Shown piece after piece: positions 11,969 through 26,908 of a stretch of 64,000 nucleotides of DNA; the first letter of the stretch is position 1, and each line of letters opens with the position of its first letter. Position numbers and translations under genes: made by a program. Below the pieces are notes generated by a model. That model worked only from the letters and a program-made list of their open reading frames with translations, searched no databases and had not been told where the DNA came from. Origin of the DNA: Candidatus Heimdallarchaeota archaeon (GTDB lineage: Archaea; Asgardarchaeota; Heimdallarchaeia; Heimdallarchaeales; Heimdallarchaeaceae); the NCBI GenBank assembly GCA_019057815.1, contig JAHLWR010000001.1:96001-160000 (forward strand), in the 5' to 3' direction.

Positions 11969-13837
11969 TCACGTTGAATACTTTCTCTTCAGGAAATAAT
12001 ATCCTACAGCACCTAGAATGAGTATTCCACCAGCTGTACCGAGTATTATTCCTAGTGCATTTGAATCAGGCTCATCTCCATTTGTTGATGTTGTTTCTGT
12101 TGTTTCTACTTCAACGGGATTAACTAAAACCTCTAGTATTTCAATCTCTGAAATATCATACCCAGGAAAATTCGCTTGTATGTTGAAGGAATACTGTTTT
12201 ACTTGAGTAACTGTCATATCTGCTGTAATCCATATAAATTTTACATAACCAGTAGAATTAGTGTTAATAGTAGCAATTACTGAAATAGAGCTTTCAAAAA
12301 CACCATCTTGGGCGGTAATCTGTACAGAAACACCTTCAATAGCTTGTTCATTTGCTGATACAAATACAATTATTGTAACATTGTCTCCCTGAGTTATTGA
12401 ACTAGGATTCGCGTTGCTATCAGTACTAAGCTTGAGTATTATGGGATTAACATGAATACTAATTGATGAAGAATTGCTATTATAAGATTCTTTTATTAAA
12501 GACACTTCAATTTGGTAATCTAGCCCACCTATAGTAGGCTCCAAATCTGATGTGTCCCAGACTACAACAACTATTCCTAACGCAGAAGAGGTAAGTTCAA
12601 TTGTATCTGTTCCAGATCCAACAAATGTACCATCTGGTGCAACAAATGTGGCATTAGCTCCTTCAGTCGGATTACTGAGTTCATTAAGTATAGTTAGAGT
12701 TATTTCTACTAATTCCCCAACTGTTACAGTTGTTATATTAGCCTCCAGTTCAATACTAGCAAACTCATGTACAAGTGGGCTAACAACAATATCATCTTCT
12801 ATTATTTTGACCACAACTACATCAGGATAATTTATCGTTGCAATTATTGTGATATTTATTATTTCAGTAACTTCTGGTGCTGTCCATGTTTCTACATATA
12901 ATCCACTAATATCTGAATATCCGATTATAGTTGTTTCATCATTTACAAAAACTCCACCAAGAGCGTCCAATTCAATTAATGCTCCAGAAACTGGACCGAT
13001 AGTTCCAGAGGTGGTAACAGTTACAGCTACAGCTGATCCTCCACTTACTTCACTCTCTGAAAATTCTAGAGTCGAAGTGTCAAAATCAATTGGGTGTACT
13101 GTTATATTTTGGGAAAGGAATGATGATACAATTTTTCCAAGAAATGTAATAGTTGCTGTAATGTTTACATCAAAAGCAGGTTCTTCACTAATAATAGCTG
13201 GTGCTTGCCATACGACTACTGCTTTTCCCTCATCAGCTGTGTTCACAGAAATAGTAGGGTCACCATTAACTGATGGGAATCCACCTCTTTCCAAACTCTC
13301 AATAGTAACATTCGCTCCATTGATTGTACCATATACGCCCTTAGCTTCTACAACAATAGAAGAGTTGTGAAATTCATAGACTTCATCAAACGTTGCCATA
13401 ACGGTGCTTAAACTAAAATCGATTGGATGAATAGTAATACCATGATTTATGATCAGTTGATCTGATCCCGAAGTGATATTAGCGCTAATTGTGACAACTA
13501 TTGATGATGTTTCGTTATCTGTATCAGGAGCTCTCCAAGCTACTGATACCTCACCTGAAACGTCAGTTATCAGCTCAATCCACTGGCCCCCATTATCTAC
13601 AAAACTTCCAAAAGGAGCAGAGATGTTAACTGTTGCACCTTGAACTAATCCCTCTGTTCCATTCACAGTAACATTGATCAATGTTGTTTGTAAAACATGC
13701 ATATCAGTAACAGCTGAAATTTGACAGTCATCAAGATTTAATGCTTGGATGTTTATAGTGTTAAAATAGAGCATTGATGTACTTAAAAGGATTAGGAGAA
13801 ATAGTTGATTCTTCAAACTTAATTTGCTTATCATCAA
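11969..13837 (-). CDS. Cell-surface protein with Ig-like (Big_1-type) repeats and C-terminal TM anchor
   Basis: Signal peptide, ~5 repeats (GAnVti.a..G.F...T...G...v.W.AP), many NxS/T sequons, Thr-rich linker, TM followed by KRK. Confidence 0.85.
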   Translation of the reverse strand: MMISKLSLKNQLFLLILLSTSMLYFNTINIQALNLDDCQISAVTDMHVLQTTLINVTVNGTEGLVQGATVNISAPFGSFVDNGGQWIELITDVSGEVSVAWRAPDTDNETSSIVVTISANITSGSDQLIINHGITIHPIDFSLSTVMATFDEVYEFHNSSIVVEAKGVYGTINGANVTIESLERGGFPSVNGDPTISVNTADEGKAVVVWQAPAIISEEPAFDVNITATITFLGKIVSSFLSQNITVHPIDFDTSTLEFSESEVSGGSAVAVTVTTSGTIGPVSGALIELDALGGVFVNDETTIIGYSDISGLYVETWTAPEVTEIINITIIATINYPDVVVVKIIEDDIVVSPLVHEFASIELEANITTVTVGELVEITLTILNELSNPTEGANATFVAPDGTFVGSGTDTIELTSSALGIVVVVWDTSDLEPTIGGLDYQIEVSLIKESYNSNSSSISIHVNPIILKLSTDSNANPSSITQGDNVTIIVFVSANEQAIEGVSVQITAQDGVFESSISVIATINTNSTGYVKFIWITADMTVTQVKQYSFNIQANFPGYDISEIEILEVLVNPVEVETTETTSTNGDEPDSNALGIILGTAGGILILGAVGYYFLKRKYST

Positions 13838-13995: not shown

Positions 13996-15885
13996 TCATA
14001 TTAAAACCATTTCATATTTTTCCATTGGGGGAAAGAGCTCAACACCAGTTCGTTCTTTAACTAAATCAATGATATGTTGGTAAAGTTTCCTATAATCAAA
14101 TTCCTTTGTGCTGTTTTTTCCAGGAATCACAAGATTATGTTTCTCACCAACCTCTATTGCTTTTTCGTAACCAGCTGCAGAAAGGCGTAAAATTGCACTT
14201 AAGGGATCCCAAGTGAGAACGCGGAAGAGTTTCTCCTGGGAAATATGTGTCCCATCAGCAAGTATAACTTGTCCAGCATGAAGACTATAACCTACACCTA
14301 CTCCACCACCGCCATGATAACTTACCCATGTTGCACCAGAAAGAGCATTCCCTAGAAGGTTAATCACCGGATAGTCACCTATTGCATCACTCCCATCTTT
14401 CATTCCTTCTGTTTCCCTATTAGGAGAAGCAACAGATCCACCATCTAGATGATCTCTTCCGATTACAACTGGAGCTTTAAGTATCCCATCTGTCACTAGT
14501 TTATTCATTAGCATGCCGAAAGCTGCACGTCCAATGAACCCTGCCCAGAAAACTCTAGCAGGAAGACCTTTCTCAAATGGTATAAATTTATCAGCTAACT
14601 CTAACCAATTAACAAGTTGTTCATCATCATAGAATAATTTCTTCGCATATTGGTCTGTAGTCCTTATATCAGAGGGGTCATTACTTAATGCCATCCACCG
14701 GAACGGTCCCTTTCCTTCACAGAATAAGGGTCTAACATATTCCAAAACAAATCCTGAATAGTTGAAAGCATCTTTTACTCCAAGTTCATATGCTTGTTGT
14801 CTAATATTATTACCATAATCAAATGTCTCTGCACCTTTTTTATGAAGTTCTGTCATAAGGCTAACATGTTTGACTACTGTTTTTCTAGATTTTTCTAGAT
14901 ACTGTTCAGGGCTTTCAGTTCTTAGGATATCAGCTTCATCATAAGTCAAACCTGTAGGATAATAACCATTGAGAAGATCATGTGCGGATGTTTGGTCTGT
15001 AAGAACATGAGGTGTGATATTATTTTCAATAAGATAGCTTAGAAGCTCTACAGCATTACAAAGTACTCCAATAGAAATGTTTTCATCTTTTTCAGCAGCT
15101 TCTTTTGCAATTTTTACGGCTTCTTCTATTGAATCTGTTTTATAATCCAAGTATGGTACTCCTTGATCTCTACCTGTATTGTACATACGATCAATAAGAA
15201 TGGGATTAACTTCTGCTATTAAACCAATTTTTCCACACATTTTAATTGATAAAGGTTGAGCACCGCTCATTAATCCCAACCCAGCACTAACAATTAGTTT
15301 CTTTTCAAAATTCGAAAGCTTCTGATAAGCAGGTTTTCCTTCTGCTGTTTTAATTGCTGCAGCGATCGTTTCATAAGTTCCTTGAATAATCCCTTGCAAG
15401 CCTATAAAAATGAAAGAACCAGCAGTCATTTGTCCATACACAGACAAACCAGCAGCAACAAATTCCTCAAAATTTGGAGACCAATGTGGTACAATAACAC
15501 TATTAGTTATCACACATCGTGGAGCCCATCTAGTTGTCTGCATTTTGCCATAAGGAACACCAGATTGCAAGAAAAGGGTTTCATTTGGTTCAAGAGTTTT
15601 TAGAAGATCTATTGTTTCAAAAAAGGATTTCCAATCTCTTGCTACTTTTCCAGAACCACCATAAATGTATAGGGTTTTCCAATCTCTACCATTATGAAGA
15701 TTTGAAATCATTGCCCTGATAATAGCTTCAGTCTCCCAACCTGCTTTTGTTGAAGGTTTTAAAGCTTCATCACCTTTCGGAAGAGCTGGAATAGCTTCTG
15801 GTATATTATCCATTCTTAATCTTTCTTCCTCTATTAAACGACATTTGCCATCCATAATCTCTTCCATTTTGTTTCGGTATTCCAT
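13996..15885 (-). CDS. hutU: Urocanate hydratase (start probably ATG 15885)
   Basis: YGGSGKVAR, YGQMTAGSF, QGIIQGTYET, TDQTSAHD, FDYGNNIR, GRDHLD, ASPNRETE, HGGGGVG. Confidence 0.96.
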   Translation of the reverse strand: MEYRNKMEEIMDGKCRLIEEERLRMDNIPEAIPALPKGDEALKPSTKAGWETEAIIRAMISNLHNGRDWKTLYIYGGSGKVARDWKSFFETIDLLKTLEPNETLFLQSGVPYGKMQTTRWAPRCVITNSVIVPHWSPNFEEFVAAGLSVYGQMTAGSFIFIGLQGIIQGTYETIAAAIKTAEGKPAYQKLSNFEKKLIVSAGLGLMSGAQPLSIKMCGKIGLIAEVNPILIDRMYNTGRDQGVPYLDYKTDSIEEAVKIAKEAAEKDENISIGVLCNAVELLSYLIENNITPHVLTDQTSAHDLLNGYYPTGLTYDEADILRTESPEQYLEKSRKTVVKHVSLMTELHKKGAETFDYGNNIRQQAYELGVKDAFNYSGFVLEYVRPLFCEGKGPFRWMALSNDPSDIRTTDQYAKKLFYDDEQLVNWLELADKFIPFEKGLPARVFWAGFIGRAAFGMLMNKLVTDGILKAPVVIGRDHLDGGSVASPNRETEGMKDGSDAIGDYPVINLLGNALSGATWVSYHGGGGVGVGYSLHAGQVILADGTHISQEKLFRVLTWDPLSAILRLSAAGYEKAIEVGEKHNLVIPGKNSTKEFDYRKLYQHIIDLVKERTGVELFPPMEKYEMVLI

Positions 15886-16014
15886 AATATCGCCTTTATC
15901 TATTATTAAAAAGAATAGGAAATAAGTTATCAAAAAGTTTACTCTTGGGAGAAAAACTGAAAATGATATCAATTATGCACAAATTATTTATTCTGTTACG
16001 CGAAATATTATTTA

Positions 16015-16515
16015 ATGAAAAAAGTAGTATTTGTTTCTGCTTTTTCACATCTTGGCCCAGAAATTTTAGAAATATATCCAAGATTAGTTATATCAATAGA
16101 ACAAGAAAAAGCAATAGCATTAAAATGCATTCCCATGGGAGGGAAAGAGGGGGATTTCATAACAGTACATGAGGGAGACTTCCAAATCGCTAGTCTTCTA
16201 ACAGTTATTCCAAGTTATATGGAAACAGAGGACAAAAGAAATACTTACGCTTCAGTTGGGTTTTTACTAGATAGTGATATAAATCCAGTTCCTTATAAGA
16301 AACTGCTAGAACAAATAATTGATGCATGTAAAGAACATAATCTGCTCAATGCAAATACTCTCAAAAAGATTCCTCACCAATTGTATAAGATTCTCGAACA
16401 AACTGAAGTTTCTCTTGATCTAAAAGAAGGAATAACAGTTGAACTATCTTTGGAAGCAAAGAAAAAAGACAAAAATGGTTTAGATTTACTTAATGATGCA
16501 CTTTGGCGAGTATAA
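16015..16515 (+). CDS. Putative longin/uDENN-like domain protein
   Basis: VVFVSAFSHLGPEILEIYP...IALKCIPMG...ASVGFLL resembles the uDENN pattern (F...GP.i...YP...i...c.P.G) of the AVL9/DENND6/NPRL2-type fold; pattern recognition only. Confidence 0.55.
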   Translation: MKKVVFVSAFSHLGPEILEIYPRLVISIEQEKAIALKCIPMGGKEGDFITVHEGDFQIASLLTVIPSYMETEDKRNTYASVGFLLDSDINPVPYKKLLEQIIDACKEHNLLNANTLKKIPHQLYKILEQTEVSLDLKEGITVELSLEAKKKDKNGLDLLNDALWRV

Positions 16516-17141
16516 TGATCGAAAATGTCCCACTAATCATTAATATATGTGTTCTAACAACGATTTGCCTAATATATCTCGTAATATTAATATCAAGATT
16601 TGTTAAAAAGCACTTTTCACTAACTTTGATAGGTATTTCTTGGGTATTGTCATATATAGGATTATTAGTATCACAGCTATTTGAAGAAACAATTTTCCTA
16701 GTTCTGACTCTTTGGTGCATTTATCAGTTTTTTTGGTTTCTTCTAGTGAGTAAAGTCTTTTACAACCAAAAATCTCTAGTGTTCAGATCAAGTCAAATTT
16801 TTCTTTTTTCAAGCGCTTTAGGTTTGATAATATCTTTAATTATAGATGATTTGGATAATTTGGACATAATTTCTTTGATAGTCTTAGTTGCATTTCTTAC
16901 TCTACCATCACTAGTTGGATATGTATTCTTAATATCTAAAATGCTAAAATCGAAAAATTATATTCACAAAGTTTTATCATTTAGTGGATTTAATCTTTTT
17001 TCAAATATTACCATTTTCTTTTATTTTACCACTATTATTTACAATATTCCAGTATTAACCATAATTTTTACAATCTCTTATGTCGCTACAGGATGTGCTT
17101 TAGTCTATTATTTGTTTAGTATTTTCATTATAGGGAGGTAA
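16515..17141 (+). CDS. Seven-TM membrane protein (start probably ATG 16515, TAATG overlap)
   Basis: Seven hydrophobic segments by inspection. Confidence 0.7.
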   Translation: MIENVPLIINICVLTTICLIYLVILISRFVKKHFSLTLIGISWVLSYIGLLVSQLFEETIFLVLTLWCIYQFFWFLLVSKVFYNQKSLVFRSSQIFLFSSALGLIISLIIDDLDNLDIISLIVLVAFLTLPSLVGYVFLISKMLKSKNYIHKVLSFSGFNLFSNITIFFYFTTIIYNIPVLTIIFTISYVATGCALVYYLFSIFIIGR

Positions 17142-17144
17142 AAA

Positions 17145-17909
17145 ATGTCATCAATTCCCATTGGACCGGTAATTATAGAAGGAATAACTTCGTTTATTTT
17201 ATTAATCCTAACAATTCAAATATTAAGACGTTATTATTCTAAGAAGTCCAAAATCACCCTATTACTGTATCTATATTTTTTGTTTCTTTTTTTAGCAGCC
17301 TTAACAAGTTTTATGGGAAGATTAATAGTATATACTAGAACTCTAGAAGCTTATAATACACGCCCTTTTGCTATTGGAGCTGGTCTTTTTTCTATTATTG
17401 GAATCTTCATCATTGTTGCTTTTGCTCAAAGACTATTCTTCAGTAAAAACAGATTTATTTTACATTGCGTAAGTATATTCCAAGGTTTAAGTTTAGGTTA
17501 TGGGTCATATATCTTGATTAATTATTCAGCTTACGAACAAGTTGAATATGAAAAAATATTGTTTATCATAGCATCTGGAATTCATGCATTCTTCGGTATT
17601 ATTTGCTATGGTTTAGTTTTTTATTTTGCTTTTAAGGCATCTAGACGTGAGAAGGATGTTCTTAGAAAAAGATGTGCAGAAGCAATCAGCATTTATGGTA
17701 TAGTCCATATATCCGCAATGTGTTTCTTAATCTTTGATCCATTATTAGCAAAAGATTTCAGCGATTACACCATTTTTTATTTCATCGGTTGGACGATGTT
17801 GATCATAGCTTGCATTATTGCTTATATTGGATATATTCAACCATGGTGGTTTAAGAAAATAGTCCTAAGGAAAATAAGTACTGATAAACAAGTAAAAGTG
17901 CTAGAATAA
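17145..17909 (+). CDS. Seven-TM receptor-like membrane protein
   Basis: Seven hydrophobic segments, basic loops after TM1 and TM5, C-terminal GYIQPWWFKK. Confidence 0.75.
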   Translation: MSSIPIGPVIIEGITSFILLILTIQILRRYYSKKSKITLLLYLYFLFLFLAALTSFMGRLIVYTRTLEAYNTRPFAIGAGLFSIIGIFIIVAFAQRLFFSKNRFILHCVSIFQGLSLGYGSYILINYSAYEQVEYEKILFIIASGIHAFFGIICYGLVFYFAFKASRREKDVLRKRCAEAISIYGIVHISAMCFLIFDPLLAKDFSDYTIFYFIGWTMLIIACIIAYIGYIQPWWFKKIVLRKISTDKQVKVLE

Positions 17910-21622: not shown

Positions 21623-23671
21623 ATGAATGATATTAAAAAGCCACCAATTGCAAAAAAAGAAATGAAGATTACAGAAATTCATGGAATTGAACTTAAGGAC
21701 GATTATTTTTGGTTACGTGATAAAGAAAATCAAGAAGTAATAGATTACCTAAATGCAGAAAATGATTATACTAAAGAAAAAACTAAACATTTGGACGATT
21801 TTACGGATAAATTATTCAATGAAATGAAAAATCGTATCAAAGAAGACGATGAAACAGTTCCTTATAAATTCAAGGATTATTTTTACTATTCAAGAACTGA
21901 AAAGGACAAAGAATATAGTATATATTGTCGAAAATACAAAAACTTAGATAATAAAGAAGAAATTCTACTTGATTTAAATGAAATGGCTAAAGGACATGAA
22001 TATTATAAATTGTATACCTCTAAAATAAGTCCTAATCAGAATATACTGGCTTACTCAATTGATGATACAGGTTATGAGAAATTAGTTATCTATTTTAAGG
22101 ATTTGACAACAGGAGAAATCTTTGCTGAAAAACTTGAAAATGTTGGTTGGAATTTTGAATGGACAGATGATAAAACGCTCTATTATACAATTAGAGATAA
22201 AGCGCAACGACCATATGCATTAAAACGACACGTGTTGGGTGCTAATCCTTCGGAAGATGCCCTAATTTTTGATGAGAAGGATGTTAAGCGGAATGTTTCT
22301 ATAAGTAAAACTAAAAATCAGAAATTCTTACTATTGAGTTCCAATTCAAAATTAAGTAATGAATATCATTTTCTTGACCTCAAAGACCATCTTGGGAAAT
22401 TTGTAGTTTTTCTACCAAGGGAAGAAAAACACGAATATATTATAAATCATAAAGATGGTTATTTCTATATTATCACAAACAAGGATGAGTCACCAAATTT
22501 CAAACTCATGCGTACTTCTATTAATAAACTTAGTATGGAAAATTGGGAAGAAATAATTGCTCACAATAAGGATGTCAAAATCGATTGGATTGAGACTTTT
22601 AAAGACTTTTCTGTAATTTCAAAAAGAGAAGAAGGATTGGATAAATTCGAGATTTTCTACGATAAAAATGATGAAAGAAATCACAACATAGAAATGCCCG
22701 AAACAGTTTATGGTGCGTGGTTTGGAGATAACCTTGAGTATTCATCTAATATTTTCAGATTTGTCTATACATCTTTAATTACTCCTAAATCAATCTATGA
22801 CTATTCTTTAAAAGAAAGAAAATTGGAATTGAAGAAGCAAGATGAAATTAAAAATTATAATAAAGAAGACTATGTCACAGAAAGAAAATATGCTATTGCC
22901 CGAGATGGTACCAAAGTTCCTATTTCTATTGTTCATAAAAAAAACATAGTTACACCTGCTCCAACATTGTTGTATGGATATGGATCTTATGGATATCCTA
23001 TGGATACTTACTTCAGTCCTTCTCGAGTCAGTTTGATAGAACGAGGGATAGTATACGTAATAGCACATGTGAGGGGTGGAGGTGAGCTTGGGAGAAAATG
23101 GTATGACGACGGTAAATTTTTGAAAAAGAAAAACACATTTTTCGATTTCATTGATTGTGCAGAATACCTGTTAAATAAAGGAATAACAACTAAAGACAAA
23201 TTTATAATACAAGGAGCAAGTGCAGGTGGCTTATTAGTAGGTGCAGTGATGACAATGAGACCTGATCTCTGTCATCTAGTTGTAGCGGAAGTACCTTTTG
23301 TAGATGTTGTTAATAGTATGTTGGATGCAAGTATACCACTTACAGCAGGGGAATGGGAAGAATGGGGTGACCCAAGTGAAAAAGACTTTTTTGATTATAT
23401 GTTATCTTATTCTCCTTATGATAATATAAAAGCTATAAATTATCCACACACTTTAGTCACCACAGGACTTAATGATCCAAGAGTAGCTTTCTGGGAACCT
23501 GCAAAATTTACAGCAAAACTTAGAGCTTTAAAAACAGACAATAATGAATTAGTACTTAAGACTAATATGGGAGCTGGGCATGGTGGCGCTTCTGGTCGAT
23601 ACGAATCCATGAAAGAAATAGCTTTTATCTACTCTTATGTGTTAGATAAAATGGGATTAGTCGACAACTAG
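21623..23671 (+). CDS. ptrB: Oligopeptidase B (peptidase S9A)
   Basis: DDYFWLRD, YGYGSYG, HVRGGGELG, GASAGG, DPRV, AGHGGASGRY. Confidence 0.95.
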   Translation: MNDIKKPPIAKKEMKITEIHGIELKDDYFWLRDKENQEVIDYLNAENDYTKEKTKHLDDFTDKLFNEMKNRIKEDDETVPYKFKDYFYYSRTEKDKEYSIYCRKYKNLDNKEEILLDLNEMAKGHEYYKLYTSKISPNQNILAYSIDDTGYEKLVIYFKDLTTGEIFAEKLENVGWNFEWTDDKTLYYTIRDKAQRPYALKRHVLGANPSEDALIFDEKDVKRNVSISKTKNQKFLLLSSNSKLSNEYHFLDLKDHLGKFVVFLPREEKHEYIINHKDGYFYIITNKDESPNFKLMRTSINKLSMENWEEIIAHNKDVKIDWIETFKDFSVISKREEGLDKFEIFYDKNDERNHNIEMPETVYGAWFGDNLEYSSNIFRFVYTSLITPKSIYDYSLKERKLELKKQDEIKNYNKEDYVTERKYAIARDGTKVPISIVHKKNIVTPAPTLLYGYGSYGYPMDTYFSPSRVSLIERGIVYVIAHVRGGGELGRKWYDDGKFLKKKNTFFDFIDCAEYLLNKGITTKDKFIIQGASAGGLLVGAVMTMRPDLCHLVVAEVPFVDVVNSMLDASIPLTAGEWEEWGDPSEKDFFDYMLSYSPYDNIKAINYPHTLVTTGLNDPRVAFWEPAKFTAKLRALKTDNNELVLKTNMGAGHGGASGRYESMKEIAFIYSYVLDKMGLVDN

Positions 23672-23765: not shown

Positions 23766-24725
23766 GTGATAATATTGAATAAATACAAACCAGTTGATCC
23801 CTTGAAATCCCCGAGATTCTTAGGGATTAAGACATTCATGCGTTTACCTCACGTAAGAACATTAGAAGGGATAGATTTTGCAATTATAGGTGTTCCAGCT
23901 GATCAGGGAGCATCGTTTCGAACAGGACAAAGAGATGGACCTGCTGCTATAAGAAGAGTATCATCTTTACTGCGAGGGCATAATCCTATTTTGAACATTA
24001 GTCCATTTGAGTATGTTTCTGGAATAGATTATGGAGATTTACCTGTTGTACCAGGATATATTGAAGATAGTTATACAAAAATAGAAGAAGGTCTTTTTCC
24101 AGTAATTGAAGCAGGCATCATTCCTATACTTCTAGGAGGTGACCATGCAATAACCTTACCAGAACTCAGAGCAATTGCAAAAAAACATGGTCCAGTTGCT
24201 TTGGTGCATTTTGATGCACACAGTGATACATCAGATGAATATTTTGGGCGTCCATATAATCATGGAACACCTTTTTCAAGAGCAGTTGATGAAAATCTTC
24301 TCCTTGTTAACCATTCAATTCAAGTTGGTTTGCGAGGTTCTACATTTTCCGAAAATCATTTGGAAATACCAAAATCTATGGGGTTTGAAGTTATAACAAT
24401 GGAAGAAATACGTAAAATAGATATTGATGACTTGATTCAAAAAATAATCGATAGAGTAGGAAATGCAAAGGTTTTCCTTACTTTTGATATAGATTTTGTT
24501 GACCCTGCTTATGCTCCAGGAACGGGTACGCCTGAGGTTGGAGGAGCTACGAGTGGAGAGGCAATGAGATTGGTGAGAGGACTAAAAGATTTGAATTTTG
24601 TAGGATTTGATATTGTTGAAGTTCTACCAGCATTTGACTTATCGGAAATAACTGCTCTCCTAGCAGCAAATATTGTATATGAATTCATCTCAATAATTGC
24701 CTACAATAAAAGAAGAACATCTTAA
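23766..24725 (+). CDS. speB: Agmatinase-like ureohydrolase
   Basis: TFMRLP, GGDH, DAHSD, HGTPF, DIDFVDPAYAPGTGTPEVGG; substrate not certain. Confidence 0.8.
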   Translation: MIILNKYKPVDPLKSPRFLGIKTFMRLPHVRTLEGIDFAIIGVPADQGASFRTGQRDGPAAIRRVSSLLRGHNPILNISPFEYVSGIDYGDLPVVPGYIEDSYTKIEEGLFPVIEAGIIPILLGGDHAITLPELRAIAKKHGPVALVHFDAHSDTSDEYFGRPYNHGTPFSRAVDENLLLVNHSIQVGLRGSTFSENHLEIPKSMGFEVITMEEIRKIDIDDLIQKIIDRVGNAKVFLTFDIDFVDPAYAPGTGTPEVGGATSGEAMRLVRGLKDLNFVGFDIVEVLPAFDLSEITALLAANIVYEFISIIAYNKRRTS

Positions 24726-24731
24726 AGAGTC

Positions 24732-25424
24732 TTAAGTATAAACCTGCATTGAAAGATAATTAAAAATTATTGTCAAGGGTATCTCATAGCATTGTGCATC
24801 AAGGTTTGAAGTTTCATAAAAGACTATTTCTCTATCAATGACAGAAGAAAAAACGATTCTTTCCGCTACATCTTGTCCTAGATATATCCCTTTTTCCTTC
24901 AAATCTGATTTATTGATAAACACGATTACAGGAATTTTTCTATTTTTCCTCTGTTCTTCCATACTTACCAAACTAAGGTAATGAGTAATTTTCTCTATGG
25001 AGGAAATATTTGTTCCATCAGCCATGATGATTACTAAATTTGCACCTTTAATTGCAATATCTTGCATGAAATCAAAGCGCTCTTGACCTGCAGGATCATT
25101 AAATACTACATTGAATGCTTCATCAATTGATTCAAAATCTATTGTTTCAAACTCTTTGTATTTCTTCACTATTACTTTATTAAAACGCGTTAAAACAATA
25201 ACCGAATTAACAACATTTAGAGAGATAGTTGTTGTACTGTTTGTAAAATCATTATACTTCAATGGAGTAAAATCAAGATTACTACTAACTTCCTTGAATA
25301 TTTGTCTAGCAACATCATTCTTTTCGATATCTCCAAAAAGAGTCTCTAGTAAAGTTGTTTTGCCACTACCTGTTGTACCTAAGATGGTTATTTTTTTCAT
25401 GGTTAATGATTTAGCTAACATCAT
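24732..25424 (-). CDS. Ras-superfamily small GTPase
   Basis: G1 GTTGSGKT, G3 DPAGQERF, G4 NKSD, G5 ETSN. Confidence 0.9.
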   Translation of the reverse strand: MMLAKSLTMKKITILGTTGSGKTTLLETLFGDIEKNDVARQIFKEVSSNLDFTPLKYNDFTNSTTTISLNVVNSVIVLTRFNKVIVKKYKEFETIDFESIDEAFNVVFNDPAGQERFDFMQDIAIKGANLVIIMADGTNISSIEKITHYLSLVSMEEQRKNRKIPVIVFINKSDLKEKGIYLGQDVAERIVFSSVIDREIVFYETSNLDAQCYEIPLTIIFNYLSMQVYT

Positions 25425-25513: not shown

Positions 25514-26908
25514 TTAGAGAGATAATTTCTCGAATCTTGCTTGGAAAAATCTCAAATACTCTGGTTCATAAATCATTTTTAATCCTGCAATTGTATCTCT
25601 TTTTTCATATAGATTTATTACTGAATTTGCAACATACTCCATGTGAGTATTTGTATAAACCCTTCTAGGAATCGTTAACCTAACCAATTCTAATGCAGGG
25701 AAGATATTCTCACCAGTTTTTGAATCTCTACCTATTGAAACAGCACCTCTTTCCATAGTCCTAACTGCAGAATCTTCATATATCGCTGCTGATAATGTTT
25801 GCCCGGGCCATTGTTCTCTTTGTAGATGAGGTAGGAATTCTAATGCATTAATAAAAATTGCATGACCACCAATAGGTTTCACAATTGGGACATTAGCCTG
25901 TATAAGCAATTCTCCTAAGTAGCGAACTTGATTTATTCTATACTTTAGATATTCATATTGTGTTCCTTCCCTTAGTCCTCTTGCAAGAGCCTCCATATCT
26001 CGCCCTGCCATACCACCATAAGTATGAAGACCTTCATAGATAACTACTGAACTTCGTGTTGCTTCAAATATCTCCTTATCATTCGTTGCGATGAAACCGC
26101 CTATATTTACTAGACAATCTTTCTTCGAACTATGAATACATCCATCAGAATAACTCATCATTTCATTTAAGATGTCAATTATTGGTGTATCTTCATAACC
26201 TTTTTCCCTTTCTCTTATAAAATAAGCATTTTCACAAGAACGTGTGATATCATATATTACCTTGATTTTATAGTCATTACAAAATTCCCTTAACTTTCGA
26301 AGATTTTCCATAGAGATAGGTTGACCACCAGCCATGTTGACATTCATTTCCACATTAACAAAAGCTATCTTATCGAGTCCATATTCATCTATGTAACCTT
26401 GCAACTTCTCAAAATCTATATTGCCTTTGAAAGGGTGTAAATTTTCAGGATCATGGGCTTCATCTATTACTGTATCAATCATCTTTCCACCAGCTATCTC
26501 CACATGTAGTTTTGAAGTTGTAAAATACATATTTCTAGGAACAATTTGCCCTGGTTTTATAAGATATCTTGACATTAGATGTTCAGCAGCTCTTCCTTGA
26601 TGAGTTGGAACAACGTATTTATATCCGAGTATATCTTGTACTGCTTTTTCTAGATTATAGAAATTCTTACTGCCTGCATATGCTTCATCTCCAAGCATCA
26701 TACCAGCCCATTGATTATCAGACATAGCAGATGTACCAGAATCTGTTAAAATATCAATATAAACGTCTTCAGATAACAGCAAAAATGTATTAAATCCTGC
26801 TTCTCTTATTGCTTCTTTTCTTCTTTTTTCAGAAGGAAGATTGACAGGTTCAACAACTTTAATTTTAAATGGTTCAACTGGAGGTTGCATATTCTCAATC
26901 ATGCACAC
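25514..26908 (-). CDS. tpl: Tyrosine phenol-lyase (beta-eliminating lyase)
   Basis: TDSGT, GDEAYAGS, THQGR, PLP-lysine in SSKKDCLVNIGG; TPL-type residues YFTT, MERG and LRFF rather than tryptophanase FDTT/LRHF. Confidence 0.8.
   Translation of the reverse strand: MCMIENMQPPVEPFKIKVVEPVNLPSEKRRKEAIREAGFNTFLLLSEDVYIDILTDSGTSAMSDNQWAGMMLGDEAYAGSKNFYNLEKAVQDILGYKYVVPTHQGRAAEHLMSRYLIKPGQIVPRNMYFTTSKLHVEIAGGKMIDTVIDEAHDPENLHPFKGNIDFEKLQGYIDEYGLDKIAFVNVEMNVNMAGGQPISMENLRKLREFCNDYKIKVIYDITRSCENAYFIREREKGYEDTPIIDILNEMMSYSDGCIHSSKKDCLVNIGGFIATNDKEIFEATRSSVVIYEGLHTYGGMAGRDMEALARGLREGTQYEYLKYRINQVRYLGELLIQANVPIVKPIGGHAIFINALEFLPHLQREQWPGQTLSAAIYEDSAVRTMERGAVSIGRDSKTGENIFPALELVRLTIPRRVYTNTHMEYVANSVINLYEKRDTIAGLKMIYEPEYLRFFQARFEKLSL

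Follow-up and report, generated by a model that had tools for sequence, protein, structure and literature searches.

How might a seven-transmembrane (7TM) protein be coupled to a regulator of small GTPases in an archaeal cell? The question is raised by a three-gene operon at positions 16015-17909 of a 64,000-nucleotide stretch of DNA (the window; G000:C38:96001-160000) from the genome of a Candidatus Heimdallarchaeota archaeon (G000; 3.7 Mb, 95% complete). A first-pass annotation of the window had described the operon as a longin/uDENN-like protein encoded together with two stand-alone 7TM proteins, and had proposed that the membrane pair signals through the longin to a small GTPase. Analysis of gene order, of a shared C-terminal tail and of predicted folds led us to favor, with moderate confidence, a related reading in which the operon encodes a membrane-docked longin module and is an Arf-less variant of a Heimdall-group cassette that combines a longin resembling NPRL2 with a small GTPase and a 7TM protein shaped like a receptor.

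The three genes are read from the forward strand. Gene 1 (16015-16515) is taken from the list of open reading frames (ORFs) and encodes a soluble protein of 166 amino acids (aa) with no transmembrane (TM) segment, P0001. Gene 2 (16515-17141) encodes a membrane protein of 208 aa counted from its ATG (P0002, here TM-A), with a TTG at 16503 as an alternative start codon, and gene 3 (17145-17909) a membrane protein of 254 aa (P0003, here TM-B). The sequence confirmed the tight, co-directional coupling described earlier. Genes 1 and 2 share a TAATG stop/start overlap at 16513-16517 (TAA, 16513-16515; ATG, 16515-16517), and the stop codon of gene 2 (17139-17141) is separated by a 3-bp gap from the ATG of gene 3 at 17145. 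A Shine-Dalgarno-like run (GGGAGG; 17133-17138) occurs within the end of gene 2, 7 nt before that ATG. A divergent urocanase gene forms the upstream border of the operon, and a 365-bp gap followed by a pyridine-nucleotide disulphide oxidoreductase gene lies downstream. Bounded in this way, the three-gene unit is self-contained. Its G+C content is 29%, versus about 33-35% in the surroundings. The sequencing runs listed with this stretch comprise sediment metagenome DNA only, two of them possibly its source, and no RNA run.

Gene order and a C-terminal tail in relatives

A second copy of the operon was found in the same genome (C9:40931-42808), encoding paralogues 38-49% identical to the products of the window copy. 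The order of a longin gene of the GP type (see below), TM-A and TM-B occurred at five loci, two of them in G000 and the others in the related genomes G002, G001 and, probably, G005. Conservation of the gene order, on which the first-pass annotation depended, was thereby upheld, and chance adjacency of the three genes was ruled out because the unit recurs both in the same genome and in relatives.

A different order, in which an Arf-family GTPase gene stands between the longin and TM-B genes, was found at 24 loci in 12 genomes (family members in 61 relatives). Genes of these loci abut or overlap, and the GTPases match the Pfam Arf model with 127-143 bits and have the N-terminus MSF(L/I)..LF. At five further loci the longin gene is directly followed by TM-B with no GTPase gene between them, and the remaining paralogues stand alone. 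Members of the longin and TM-B families are neighbors in more than 30 loci. The window operon has the same longin family (alignment A1), TM-B family (alignment A4), gene order, tight coupling and C-terminal tail as the Heimdall longin-Arf-7TM cassette, in that an A1-family longin with a D-x-L-W tail is followed by a TM-B gene. It differs from the cassette in its middle gene, which encodes an Arf GTPase in the cassette and a second 7TM protein (TM-A) in the operon, no Arf match being detected near either operon copy in G000. Its longin is also from a different deep clade of the family than the cassette longins, with GP where these have G-L. Many Arf-like genes are present in G000, none of them adjoining either copy. 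The proposed link to small GTPases is backed, in this general form, by the 24 loci with an Arf gene between the same longin and 7TM families.

Many of the loci were gathered via the longin itself and thus form a biased sample; loci sampled through TM-B in its own right gave the same pattern. In genera g3 and g4, TM-B is preceded by a 148-aa Roadblock/LC7-like protein, one representative of which matched PF03259 with 25.4 bits, above the cut-off. The partner in families f3 and f6 is a protein of 138-152 aa that resembles Sybindin or Fuz_longin at sub-threshold level, and two tandem TM-B paralogues follow it. One small platform protein encoded with two 7TM proteins is a recurrent design, and the window operon is one form of it. 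TM-B relatives were found in 41 of the 61 relatives and in 85 of a phylum-wide sample of 201 genomes, which makes the family Asgard-wide, and they are called "hypothetical protein" in every source. The window TM-B is closer to the Roadblock-linked TM-B proteins than to those of the Arf cassettes. Among 18 TM-B loci of other Asgard classes, four adjoin a small GTPase gene and most are solitary; GTPases of 176-215 aa with weak Arf-profile matches lie beside TM-B at three of the loci (L102, L105, L106), and two 315-aa GTPases at another (L108).

Some of these neighborhoods held additional genes. In genus g3 (loci L019-L026), the Roadblock-like and TM-B genes are followed by one encoding a protein of 333 aa that has a GNAT acetyltransferase domain at its C-terminus. 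The family f1 cassettes (L066, L069, L070, L072, L076, L041) regularly contain two more genes after TM-B, encoding a flavin-reductase-like protein of ~290 aa and a ~470-aa protein whose N-terminus resembles the first longin of INTU/CCZ1/HPS4 (PF19031, 19.8 bits, sub-threshold), and the conserved f1 unit may therefore be longer than three genes. Besides the operon paralogue on contig C9, the source genome has another P0001 paralogue on contig C48 (L014:6209-7748). This third longin is tail-less and has no 7TM neighbors; the next gene encodes an MscS-like channel (~327 aa; PF00924, 50 bits), a pairing that recurs in a sister genome (L008, G001:C259).

The longin of the window ends in D161-A-L-W164-R-V (16495-16512, + strand), a candidate 7TM-docking motif. 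A tail of the form [D/E/A]-[L/V/I/M]-[W/Y] plus zero to two residues was present in 32 of 32 longin-family members followed by a TM-B gene and in none of the 19 without one. Examples are ...LLNDALWRV in P0001, ...DDLWK in the Arf-linked clade and ...EDVW in others. In a tree built without the tail columns, the 7TM link and the tail each change twice, on the same branches and with both contrasts pointing the same way. A stronger argument is that the tail is also shared by TM-B partners that are not homologous to one another, since the Roadblock-like proteins have ...SDSFW or ...SDSLW at the C-terminus and the small longin-like ones have ...KDALW, ...KESLW or ...RDAFW. Across GP-longins, Arf-linked longins, Roadblock/LC7-like proteins and small longin-like proteins, the common form is [D/E]-x-[L/F/V/I]-W. 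Of the 65 distinct TM-B genes in the Heimdall-class loci, 60 are preceded at no more than 1.1 kb by a same-strand ORF that carries the tail; of the five exceptions, two are cut by contig ends and one has Y replacing W. Those loci contain 584 ORFs of 100 aa or longer, and the only others listed among them with the tail are copies of the same genes in overlapping loci. Across the whole of G000, the tail terminates only three of the 3428 ORFs that are 100 aa or longer, and two of these are the operon longins. The third (C21:10844-12031, - strand) encodes 395 aa ending in ...DALWTE and may be due to chance.

Tail codons differ synonymously, which indicates that the tail is conserved at the protein level, and stop codons and spacing vary. 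We considered whether the terminal Trp could be an artefact of a ribosome-binding site formed by TGG-TGA (GGTGA). This was rejected as a full explanation because many copies have TAA or TAG stops or one to two residues past the Trp, the spacing is variable, and the D, S/A and L/F codons differ synonymously. Taken as a whole, the pattern suggests that the tail would be what attaches platform proteins to TM-B, at the conserved and basic face that TM-B turns to the cytoplasm. Two departures from the pattern were noted. At L093, a locus outside Heimdallarchaeia, a 137-aa protein ending in ...REAVW comes after the TM-B gene rather than before it. Divergent longins at L084:2952-3524 and L090:2996-3556 carry an internal D-(E/D)-D-L-W followed by an acidic extension of ~25-30 residues and have no TM-B neighbor; unrelated 6-TM genes lie nearby at L084.

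Predicted folds of the three proteins

The structure of P0001 was modeled with AlphaFold2 (AF2) from an alignment of 16 family members (pLDDT 82, pTM 0.76). The model has the order b-b-a-b-b-b-a-a of a longin domain (strands 4-11 and 14-21, helix 28-38, strands 48-53, 56-65 and 77-86, helices 92-107 and 113-127) and thus the alpha-beta-alpha sandwich b1-b2-a1-b3-b4-b5-a2(-a3), followed by a beta-hairpin and a short, poorly modeled C-terminal helix. Most of the top 50 matches in Foldseek and in VIA were longin domains, so that this confident topology bears out the longin fold proposed earlier for the soluble ORF. All 15 Foldseek matches at E <= 0.001 were chains of GATOR1 or SEA complexes (best E, 8e-8). 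The best VIA match of all PDB chains (Z 14.7, root-mean-square deviation [rmsd] 3.4 A over 153 residues) placed model residues 1-156 on residues 6-168/169 of 362-370-residue chains in GATOR1 entries. It was followed by the yeast SEA complex counterpart (Z 12.5), an NPRL3-length chain (Z 11.3), the Lokiarchaeal longin 8yqg (Z 10.5), FLCN (Z 10.0), the DENND1 longin (Z 9.2), AP sigma subunits (Z about 8.5) and Ykt6 (Z 8.1), with Fuzzy-Inturned also among the matches (Z 7-9 range). The best-matching GATOR1 chains appear to be NPRL2, judging by their length and by chain letter N of entry 6ces. Since the NPRL2 match takes in the hairpin after the longin core, it amounts to more than a generic longin resemblance.

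According to its model, P0001 is a longin whose nearest known type is the NPRL2/FLCN-like longin with GTPase-activating protein (GAP) function rather than uDENN. The likeness to uDENN that had been suggested did not hold up, given the Z of 14.7 for NPRL2 against 9.2 for DENND1 and the lack of any cDENN or dDENN part; the protein is only 166 aa long, compared with the tripartite uDENN-cDENN-dDENN arrangement of DENN proteins, and no Pfam DENN match was obtained. Nor did the NPR2/NPRL2 family model PF06218 match, and the protein stops at residue 166, just past the hairpin. Neither Pfam (E <= 1) nor NCBIfam yielded a match for P0001.

The pattern F..GPEI..YP...CIPMG, which had been pointed out in the first reading of the sequence, proved to be a true signature of a small family, with G14, P22, P40, P66, G82, P93 and Y94 invariant in alignment A1. 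A GP motif marks the GAP longins NPRL2, FLCN, SMCR8 and C9orf72 and is lacking in DENND proteins, TRAPP subunits and adaptins (PMC12290439). In these GAP longins it lies before or at the start of strand b2, and in P0001 it was found at the start of b2 (residues 14-21) as G14-P15 (codons 16054-16059, + strand). G14 is invariant in the family; P15 occurs in the operon type and in the closest stand-alone paralogues, and is L or N in others. GP and an arginine finger together define GAP longins, and both have been reported in Heimdall longins (PMC12290439). A candidate arginine finger in P0001 is Arg75 (codon 16237-16239, + strand) in the b4-b5 loop, the sole Arg between residues 66 and 88 and ~60 residues after the GP motif. 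It is kept as D-x-R-D/N-T in the P0001 clade and as R-D/N-N in the Arf-linked clade, and the VIA alignment ranges alone, rather than a residue-level superposition, place it compatibly with NPRL2 Arg78. The corresponding human NPRL2 segment, which we take to be ...S-R-N-A...L-G-F, may be set beside K-R-N-T...V-G-F in P0001 as a lead and not as a test.

Relatives of P0001 are confined to close kin. Two near-identical proteins were found among 5.8 billion clusters, and a whole-library hidden Markov model search with alignment A1 returned 75 representatives in 1.8 billion proteins, all of them small proteins with the exception of a 2705-aa repetitive surface protein that was judged spurious on reading. 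The family is present in 21 of the 61 related genomes, with at most nine copies per genome. A search for related loci with a smaller alignment (A5) gave nine, in records titled Heimdallarchaeota, Hodarchaeota or uncultured archaeon.

The AF2 model of TM-B (pLDDT 92.9, pTM 0.89) consists of seven TM helices and a C-terminal amphipathic helix, here called helix 8 (residues 6-33, 36-65, 69-98, 104-125, 134-168, 172-201, 210-231 and 234-253). Loops rich in K/R lie on alternate sides, and the predicted orientation is N-out/C-in. In silico, TM-B thus has the topology of a G-protein-coupled receptor (GPCR). This high-confidence model, together with the lack of an output domain, agrees with the earlier description of gene 3 as encoding a stand-alone 7TM protein. 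All of the top 50 Foldseek matches were GPCRs, but with E values of 0.03-0.15 and TM-scores of about 0.5. A wide VIA search, which is independent of Foldseek, gave Ste2 (Z 14.8), two designed GPCR-like folds (Z about 14.4), GPR156 (Z 13.8), GABA-B (Z 13.7), ACER3 (Z 12.9), microbial rhodopsins (Z 12.3-12.6) and AdipoR2 (Z 11.9). The best match in the Protein Atlas was the 7TM input module of bacterial sensor histidine kinases (TM-score 0.66 over 212 residues, rmsd 3.4 A). The flatness of the Z list points to a common seven-helix arrangement, that is, a generic receptor-like bundle.

None of the 7TM classes compared here was recognizable in TM-B from its markers. The GPCR signatures DRY, CWxP and NPxxY are not among the conserved motifs of TM-B, and no Pfam 7tm match was obtained. 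No Lys is present in TM7 (210-231), nor is one conserved there in alignment A4, as would be expected of a rhodopsin. No His occurs among the 30 most conserved positions, as the zinc site of PAQR/ACER (CREST) proteins would entail. Fused output domains of the HisKA_7TM or 7TMR-DISM kind were not found either, since members of the family are 230-349 aa long and have no Pfam match; no relative of 500-2000 aa turned up, which is weak evidence. TM-B itself has no Pfam or NCBIfam domain. Conservation is concentrated elsewhere, with 20 of the 30 most conserved positions falling within four stretches assigned to cytoplasmic helix ends, a face that is basic. The conserved cytoplasmic motifs are K-Y-x-x-R-K after TM1, F93/F98 at the end of TM3 and K-x-G-F before TM6. 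The most conserved of all is Y-x-G-Y-x-(M/Q)-P-x-W-x-(K/R) at the cytoplasmic TM7/helix-8 junction (17823-17855, + strand), in which G229 and P233 are invariant among 36 sequences.

G000 also encodes 7TM proteins with a fused soluble C-terminal domain (C1:86639-87730, C7:6860-7996, C7:15682-16764, C46:35912-37048). Comparison of their 7TM part with TM-B gave an hhalign probability of 31% (E 5e-4, 158 co-linear columns), which is suggestive and was not used as evidence. A firmer link of TM-B to these fusions would constitute Rosetta-stone evidence for 7TM-longin coupling.

For TM-A, seven hydrophobic segments were assigned by eye, and a strict Kyte-Doolittle threshold gives only four to six. 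With no Pfam or NCBIfam domain and no GTPase motifs, the protein fits, on the by-eye count, the earlier description of a second stand-alone seven-helix protein. Its loop charges, also read by eye, alternate between K/R-rich and D/E-rich as for an N-out/C-in protein. TM-A has no detectable similarity to TM-B (BLASTP E 1.3; hhalign probability 1.7%), and its Protein Atlas search was uninformative, returning unnamed clusters only, with a recognition value under the usual mark. The family is narrow and fast-evolving; members were detected only in G002, in G001 and, as two copies, in G000, and a match in G005 is doubtful.

Proposed mode of action and its alternatives

Under the favored reading of an Arf-less cassette variant, TM-A and TM-B would be inserted in the membrane with their N-termini outside, as suggested by the TM-B model and by loop charges, and would probably pair with one another, as suggested by their translational coupling and by the tandem TM-B pairs of relatives. 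The tail pattern implies that P0001 could be held at the basic cytoplasmic face of TM-B by its D-A-L-W tail. There the docked longin, probably a dimer, might regulate an Arf-like GTPase encoded elsewhere in the genome, as the sister cassettes suggest. The most likely activity would be that of a GAP, in which Arg75 would act beside the GP motif as Arg78 does in NPRL2. The 7TM proteins may act as sensors or may only anchor the longin, and since the extracellular loops are short, any ligand would be small or lipid-like and bound inside the bundle.

The docking step was examined by the kind of complex modeling that had been proposed in the first-pass annotation, here run on the longin and the 7TM proteins. 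A three-chain prediction of TM-B, TM-A and the longin scored 0.36, compared with 0.01 for the best of three controls, and lends the docking weak support. Replacement of TM-B in a control caused the score to fall to 0.01. Prediction runs agreed in at least 97% of contacts, with a partner pLDDT of at least 73. In calibration, 58 of 80 solved complexes and two of 110 mismatched pairs attained the mark; at scores of 0.60 or less, only seven of those 80 did so, together with both of the passing mismatches.

Several points weigh against the interpretation as an Arf-less cassette. The complex score just described falls within the weak range. No GTPase gene lies in or beside either operon copy, and no longin-Arf-TM-B cassette was found in G000, a genome that is 95% complete. 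The operon has a single longin gene, whereas eukaryotic longin GAPs form a heterodimer with a second, non-catalytic longin (NPRL3, FNIP, C9orf72). At the sequence level, no link to NPRL2, FLCN or DENN was detected with Pfam for the 16 family members at E <= 10, and searching the sequences of the PDB with the family profile yielded 0 matches at E <= 10. The equivalence of Arg75 with NPRL2 Arg78 is drawn from alignment ranges and not from a residue-by-residue comparison. The 7TM fold match of the TM-B model is generic, as its flat Z list (14.8-11.7) includes rhodopsins and PAQR/ACER proteins. The correlation of the tail with TM-B represents only two independent contrasts in the longin family, too few for statistics, and outside the Heimdall class only one of the 18 TM-B loci has a tail-bearing neighbor. 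Finally, the bias from fetching many of the loci through the longin applies to the counts given above.

A stronger version of the favored reading would make the TM-B proteins true receptors in a signaling system specific to Asgard archaea, whose cytoplasmic face reads the [D/E]-x-hydrophobic-Trp tail and recruits interchangeable platforms (NPRL2-like longin, Roadblock protein or small longin), with the ligand or lipid state gating Arf-like GTPases. We put this forward tentatively, as a less probable extension. If true, the unit would be a prokaryotic counterpart, and possibly a forerunner, of the lysosomal multi-pass proteins that recruit longin GAP complexes (PQLC2-CSW, LYCHOS-GATOR1).

The absence of a GTPase gene at either operon copy in G000 could also be taken at face value. 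The longin would then be a regulatory or assembly subunit of a TM-A/TM-B transporter, lipid-handling enzyme or receptor with a different output, and the Arf cassettes a separate specialization. Consistent with this, most TM-B genes of genus g3 pair only with the Roadblock-like protein, followed by the GNAT acetyltransferase in an otherwise GTPase-less vicinity, and ACER3 and AdipoR, which are 7TM hydrolases, as well as rhodopsins score nearly as well as GPCRs against TM-B. TM-B, however, lacks a conserved His/Asp metal site and a TM7 Lys, and longin and Roadblock domains are known mainly as platforms for small GTPases. Moreover, the Arf-linked clade retains the same tail, Arg and TM-B partner, and TM-B relatives of other classes again lie beside GTPase genes. 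We consider a GTPase-free function unlikely.

The direction of regulation is a further point of choice. Most longin-based regulators are guanine nucleotide exchange factors (GEFs) or platforms (PMC12290439, in line with general knowledge), and the unit might be a GEF or recruitment platform, like the longins of DENN, Mon1-Ccz1 and TRAPP, in which the longin activates or merely tethers a small GTPase at the membrane beside the 7TM proteins. In keeping with such a role, DENND1, Fuzzy-Inturned and AP sigma also match P0001 (Z 7-9), and the other TM-B partners resemble Roadblock, Sybindin and Fuz_longin, which are GEF or platform types. NPRL2, on the other hand, is the best fold match by ~4 Z units, with the region after the longin core included, and P0001 has the GP motif and a conserved Arg, whereas DENND, TRAPP and adaptins have no GP (PMC12290439). 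On balance we regard a GEF or platform function as quite improbable and retain the GAP-type longin of an Arf-less cassette as the preferred reading.

The specific GTPase to which the operon had been linked in the first-pass annotation is a 230-aa protein of the Ras superfamily (24732-25424, - strand; Pfam Ras, 43.8 bits) with a long insert between the P-loop and DxxG. Its gene is conserved and mostly single-copy, being present in 51 of the 61 relatives and in 14 of the 14 high-quality ones. In G056:C21 the distance from an orthologue to a longin-7TM pair is ~2.3 kb, and in G048:C16 it is ~1.7 kb; the two genomes belong to one genus and therefore count as one observation, a weak hint only. That the 7TM pair signals via the longin to this GTPase is very improbable, because the gene, while only 7 kb from the operon, is on the opposite strand with four unrelated genes intervening (oxidoreductase, TPR protein, S9 peptidase, arginase-family enzyme), is kept in relatives irrespective of the operon, and in G001, G002 and G005 either lies on a different contig or is separated from it by more than 40 kb, so that the proposed link fails as a general linkage.

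Genes for peptide and amino-acid breakdown surround the operon, namely a urocanase, an S9 prolyl-oligopeptidase-family peptidase, an arginase-family enzyme and a beta-eliminating lyase of the tryptophanase/tyrosine phenol-lyase type (13996-15972, - strand; 21623-23671, + strand; 23766-24725, + strand; 25514-26908, - strand). Eukaryotic NPRL2 acts in amino-acid sensing. Farther upstream (11969-13837, - strand), the window encodes a 622-aa protein with a signal-like N-terminus, segments that look like Ig-like repeats and a C-terminal TM anchor, for which no Pfam match was found at E <= 1e-5.

Comparison with known systems

Joint encoding of membrane sensors, Roadblock proteins and Ras-superfamily GTPases is known in prokaryotes, as in the actinobacterial conservon (CvnA-D) and in MglA/MglB. 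These systems combine a histidine-kinase-like sensor, a Roadblock platform and an MglA-like GTPase, whereas the window operon has bare 7TM proteins, an NPRL2-like longin and no GTPase gene, and the GTPases of its sister cassettes are Arf-like. With GPCRs and HisKA_7TM modules, TM-B has seven helices in common, with an N-out/C-in orientation and helix 8 predicted. It differs from GPCRs and 7TM sensors in the lack of DRY, NPxxY and CWxP, of a fused output domain and of a heterotrimeric G protein. GPCR-like and "7TM" structural clusters common to Asgard archaea and eukaryotes were described in a 2026 preprint.

Previous work on Asgard archaea has reported that NPRL2-like longin domains are abundant and that most eukaryotic-signature genes lie outside conserved neighborhoods (Liu et al., bioRxiv 10.1101/2020.10.19.343400). 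In MK-D1, genes for GTPases as a rule do not share operons with those for Roadblock or longin proteins, a layout that rarely pairs GTPases with regulators (Tran et al., PMC10933270), and Asgard Arf GTPases were described in the earlier literature without analysis of gene context. Which GTPases, ArfR or Rag, the GP-motif longins of Heimdallarchaeia have as clients has been posed as a question (PMC12290439). The Asgard GP-motif longins of the FLCN/SMCR8 type and the NPRL2-like longins are the same kind of protein from the same lineage (Heimdallarchaeia) as P0001, and were described without partners. A limited literature search found no link of these longins to 7TM proteins, Arf genes or a common tail. 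New here are the Arf-less, double-7TM variant, the three kinds of platform partner of TM-B and the tail that unites those partners. The gene order names testable partners for Asgard GTPase regulation, namely an NPRL2-like longin, a dedicated 7TM family and, in the sister cassettes, a specific Arf GTPase, and the shared tail offers a simple, mutable handle on the docking of platform proteins to 7TM proteins.

The closest comparison is with the eukaryotic longin GAPs. P0001 has the longin fold, the b2 GP motif and a conserved Arg in common with NPRL2 (yeast Npr2), FLCN-FNIP and C9orf72-SMCR8. Relative to GATOR1, it lacks the C-terminal domain of NPRL2 and the NPRL3, DEPDC5 and DENN parts, and its likely client would be an Arf-like GTPase rather than the Rag GTPase of GATOR1. 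The C-terminal D-x-L-W tail also sets it apart from longin GAPs of the NPRL2 type. Eukaryotic longin GAPs are brought to membranes by multi-pass proteins, PQLC2 in the case of CSW and GPR155/LYCHOS in that of GATOR1 (PMC12290439). If the reading of the operon as a membrane-docked longin module is true, recruitment of longin GAP-type regulators to membranes by multi-pass proteins would predate eukaryotes.

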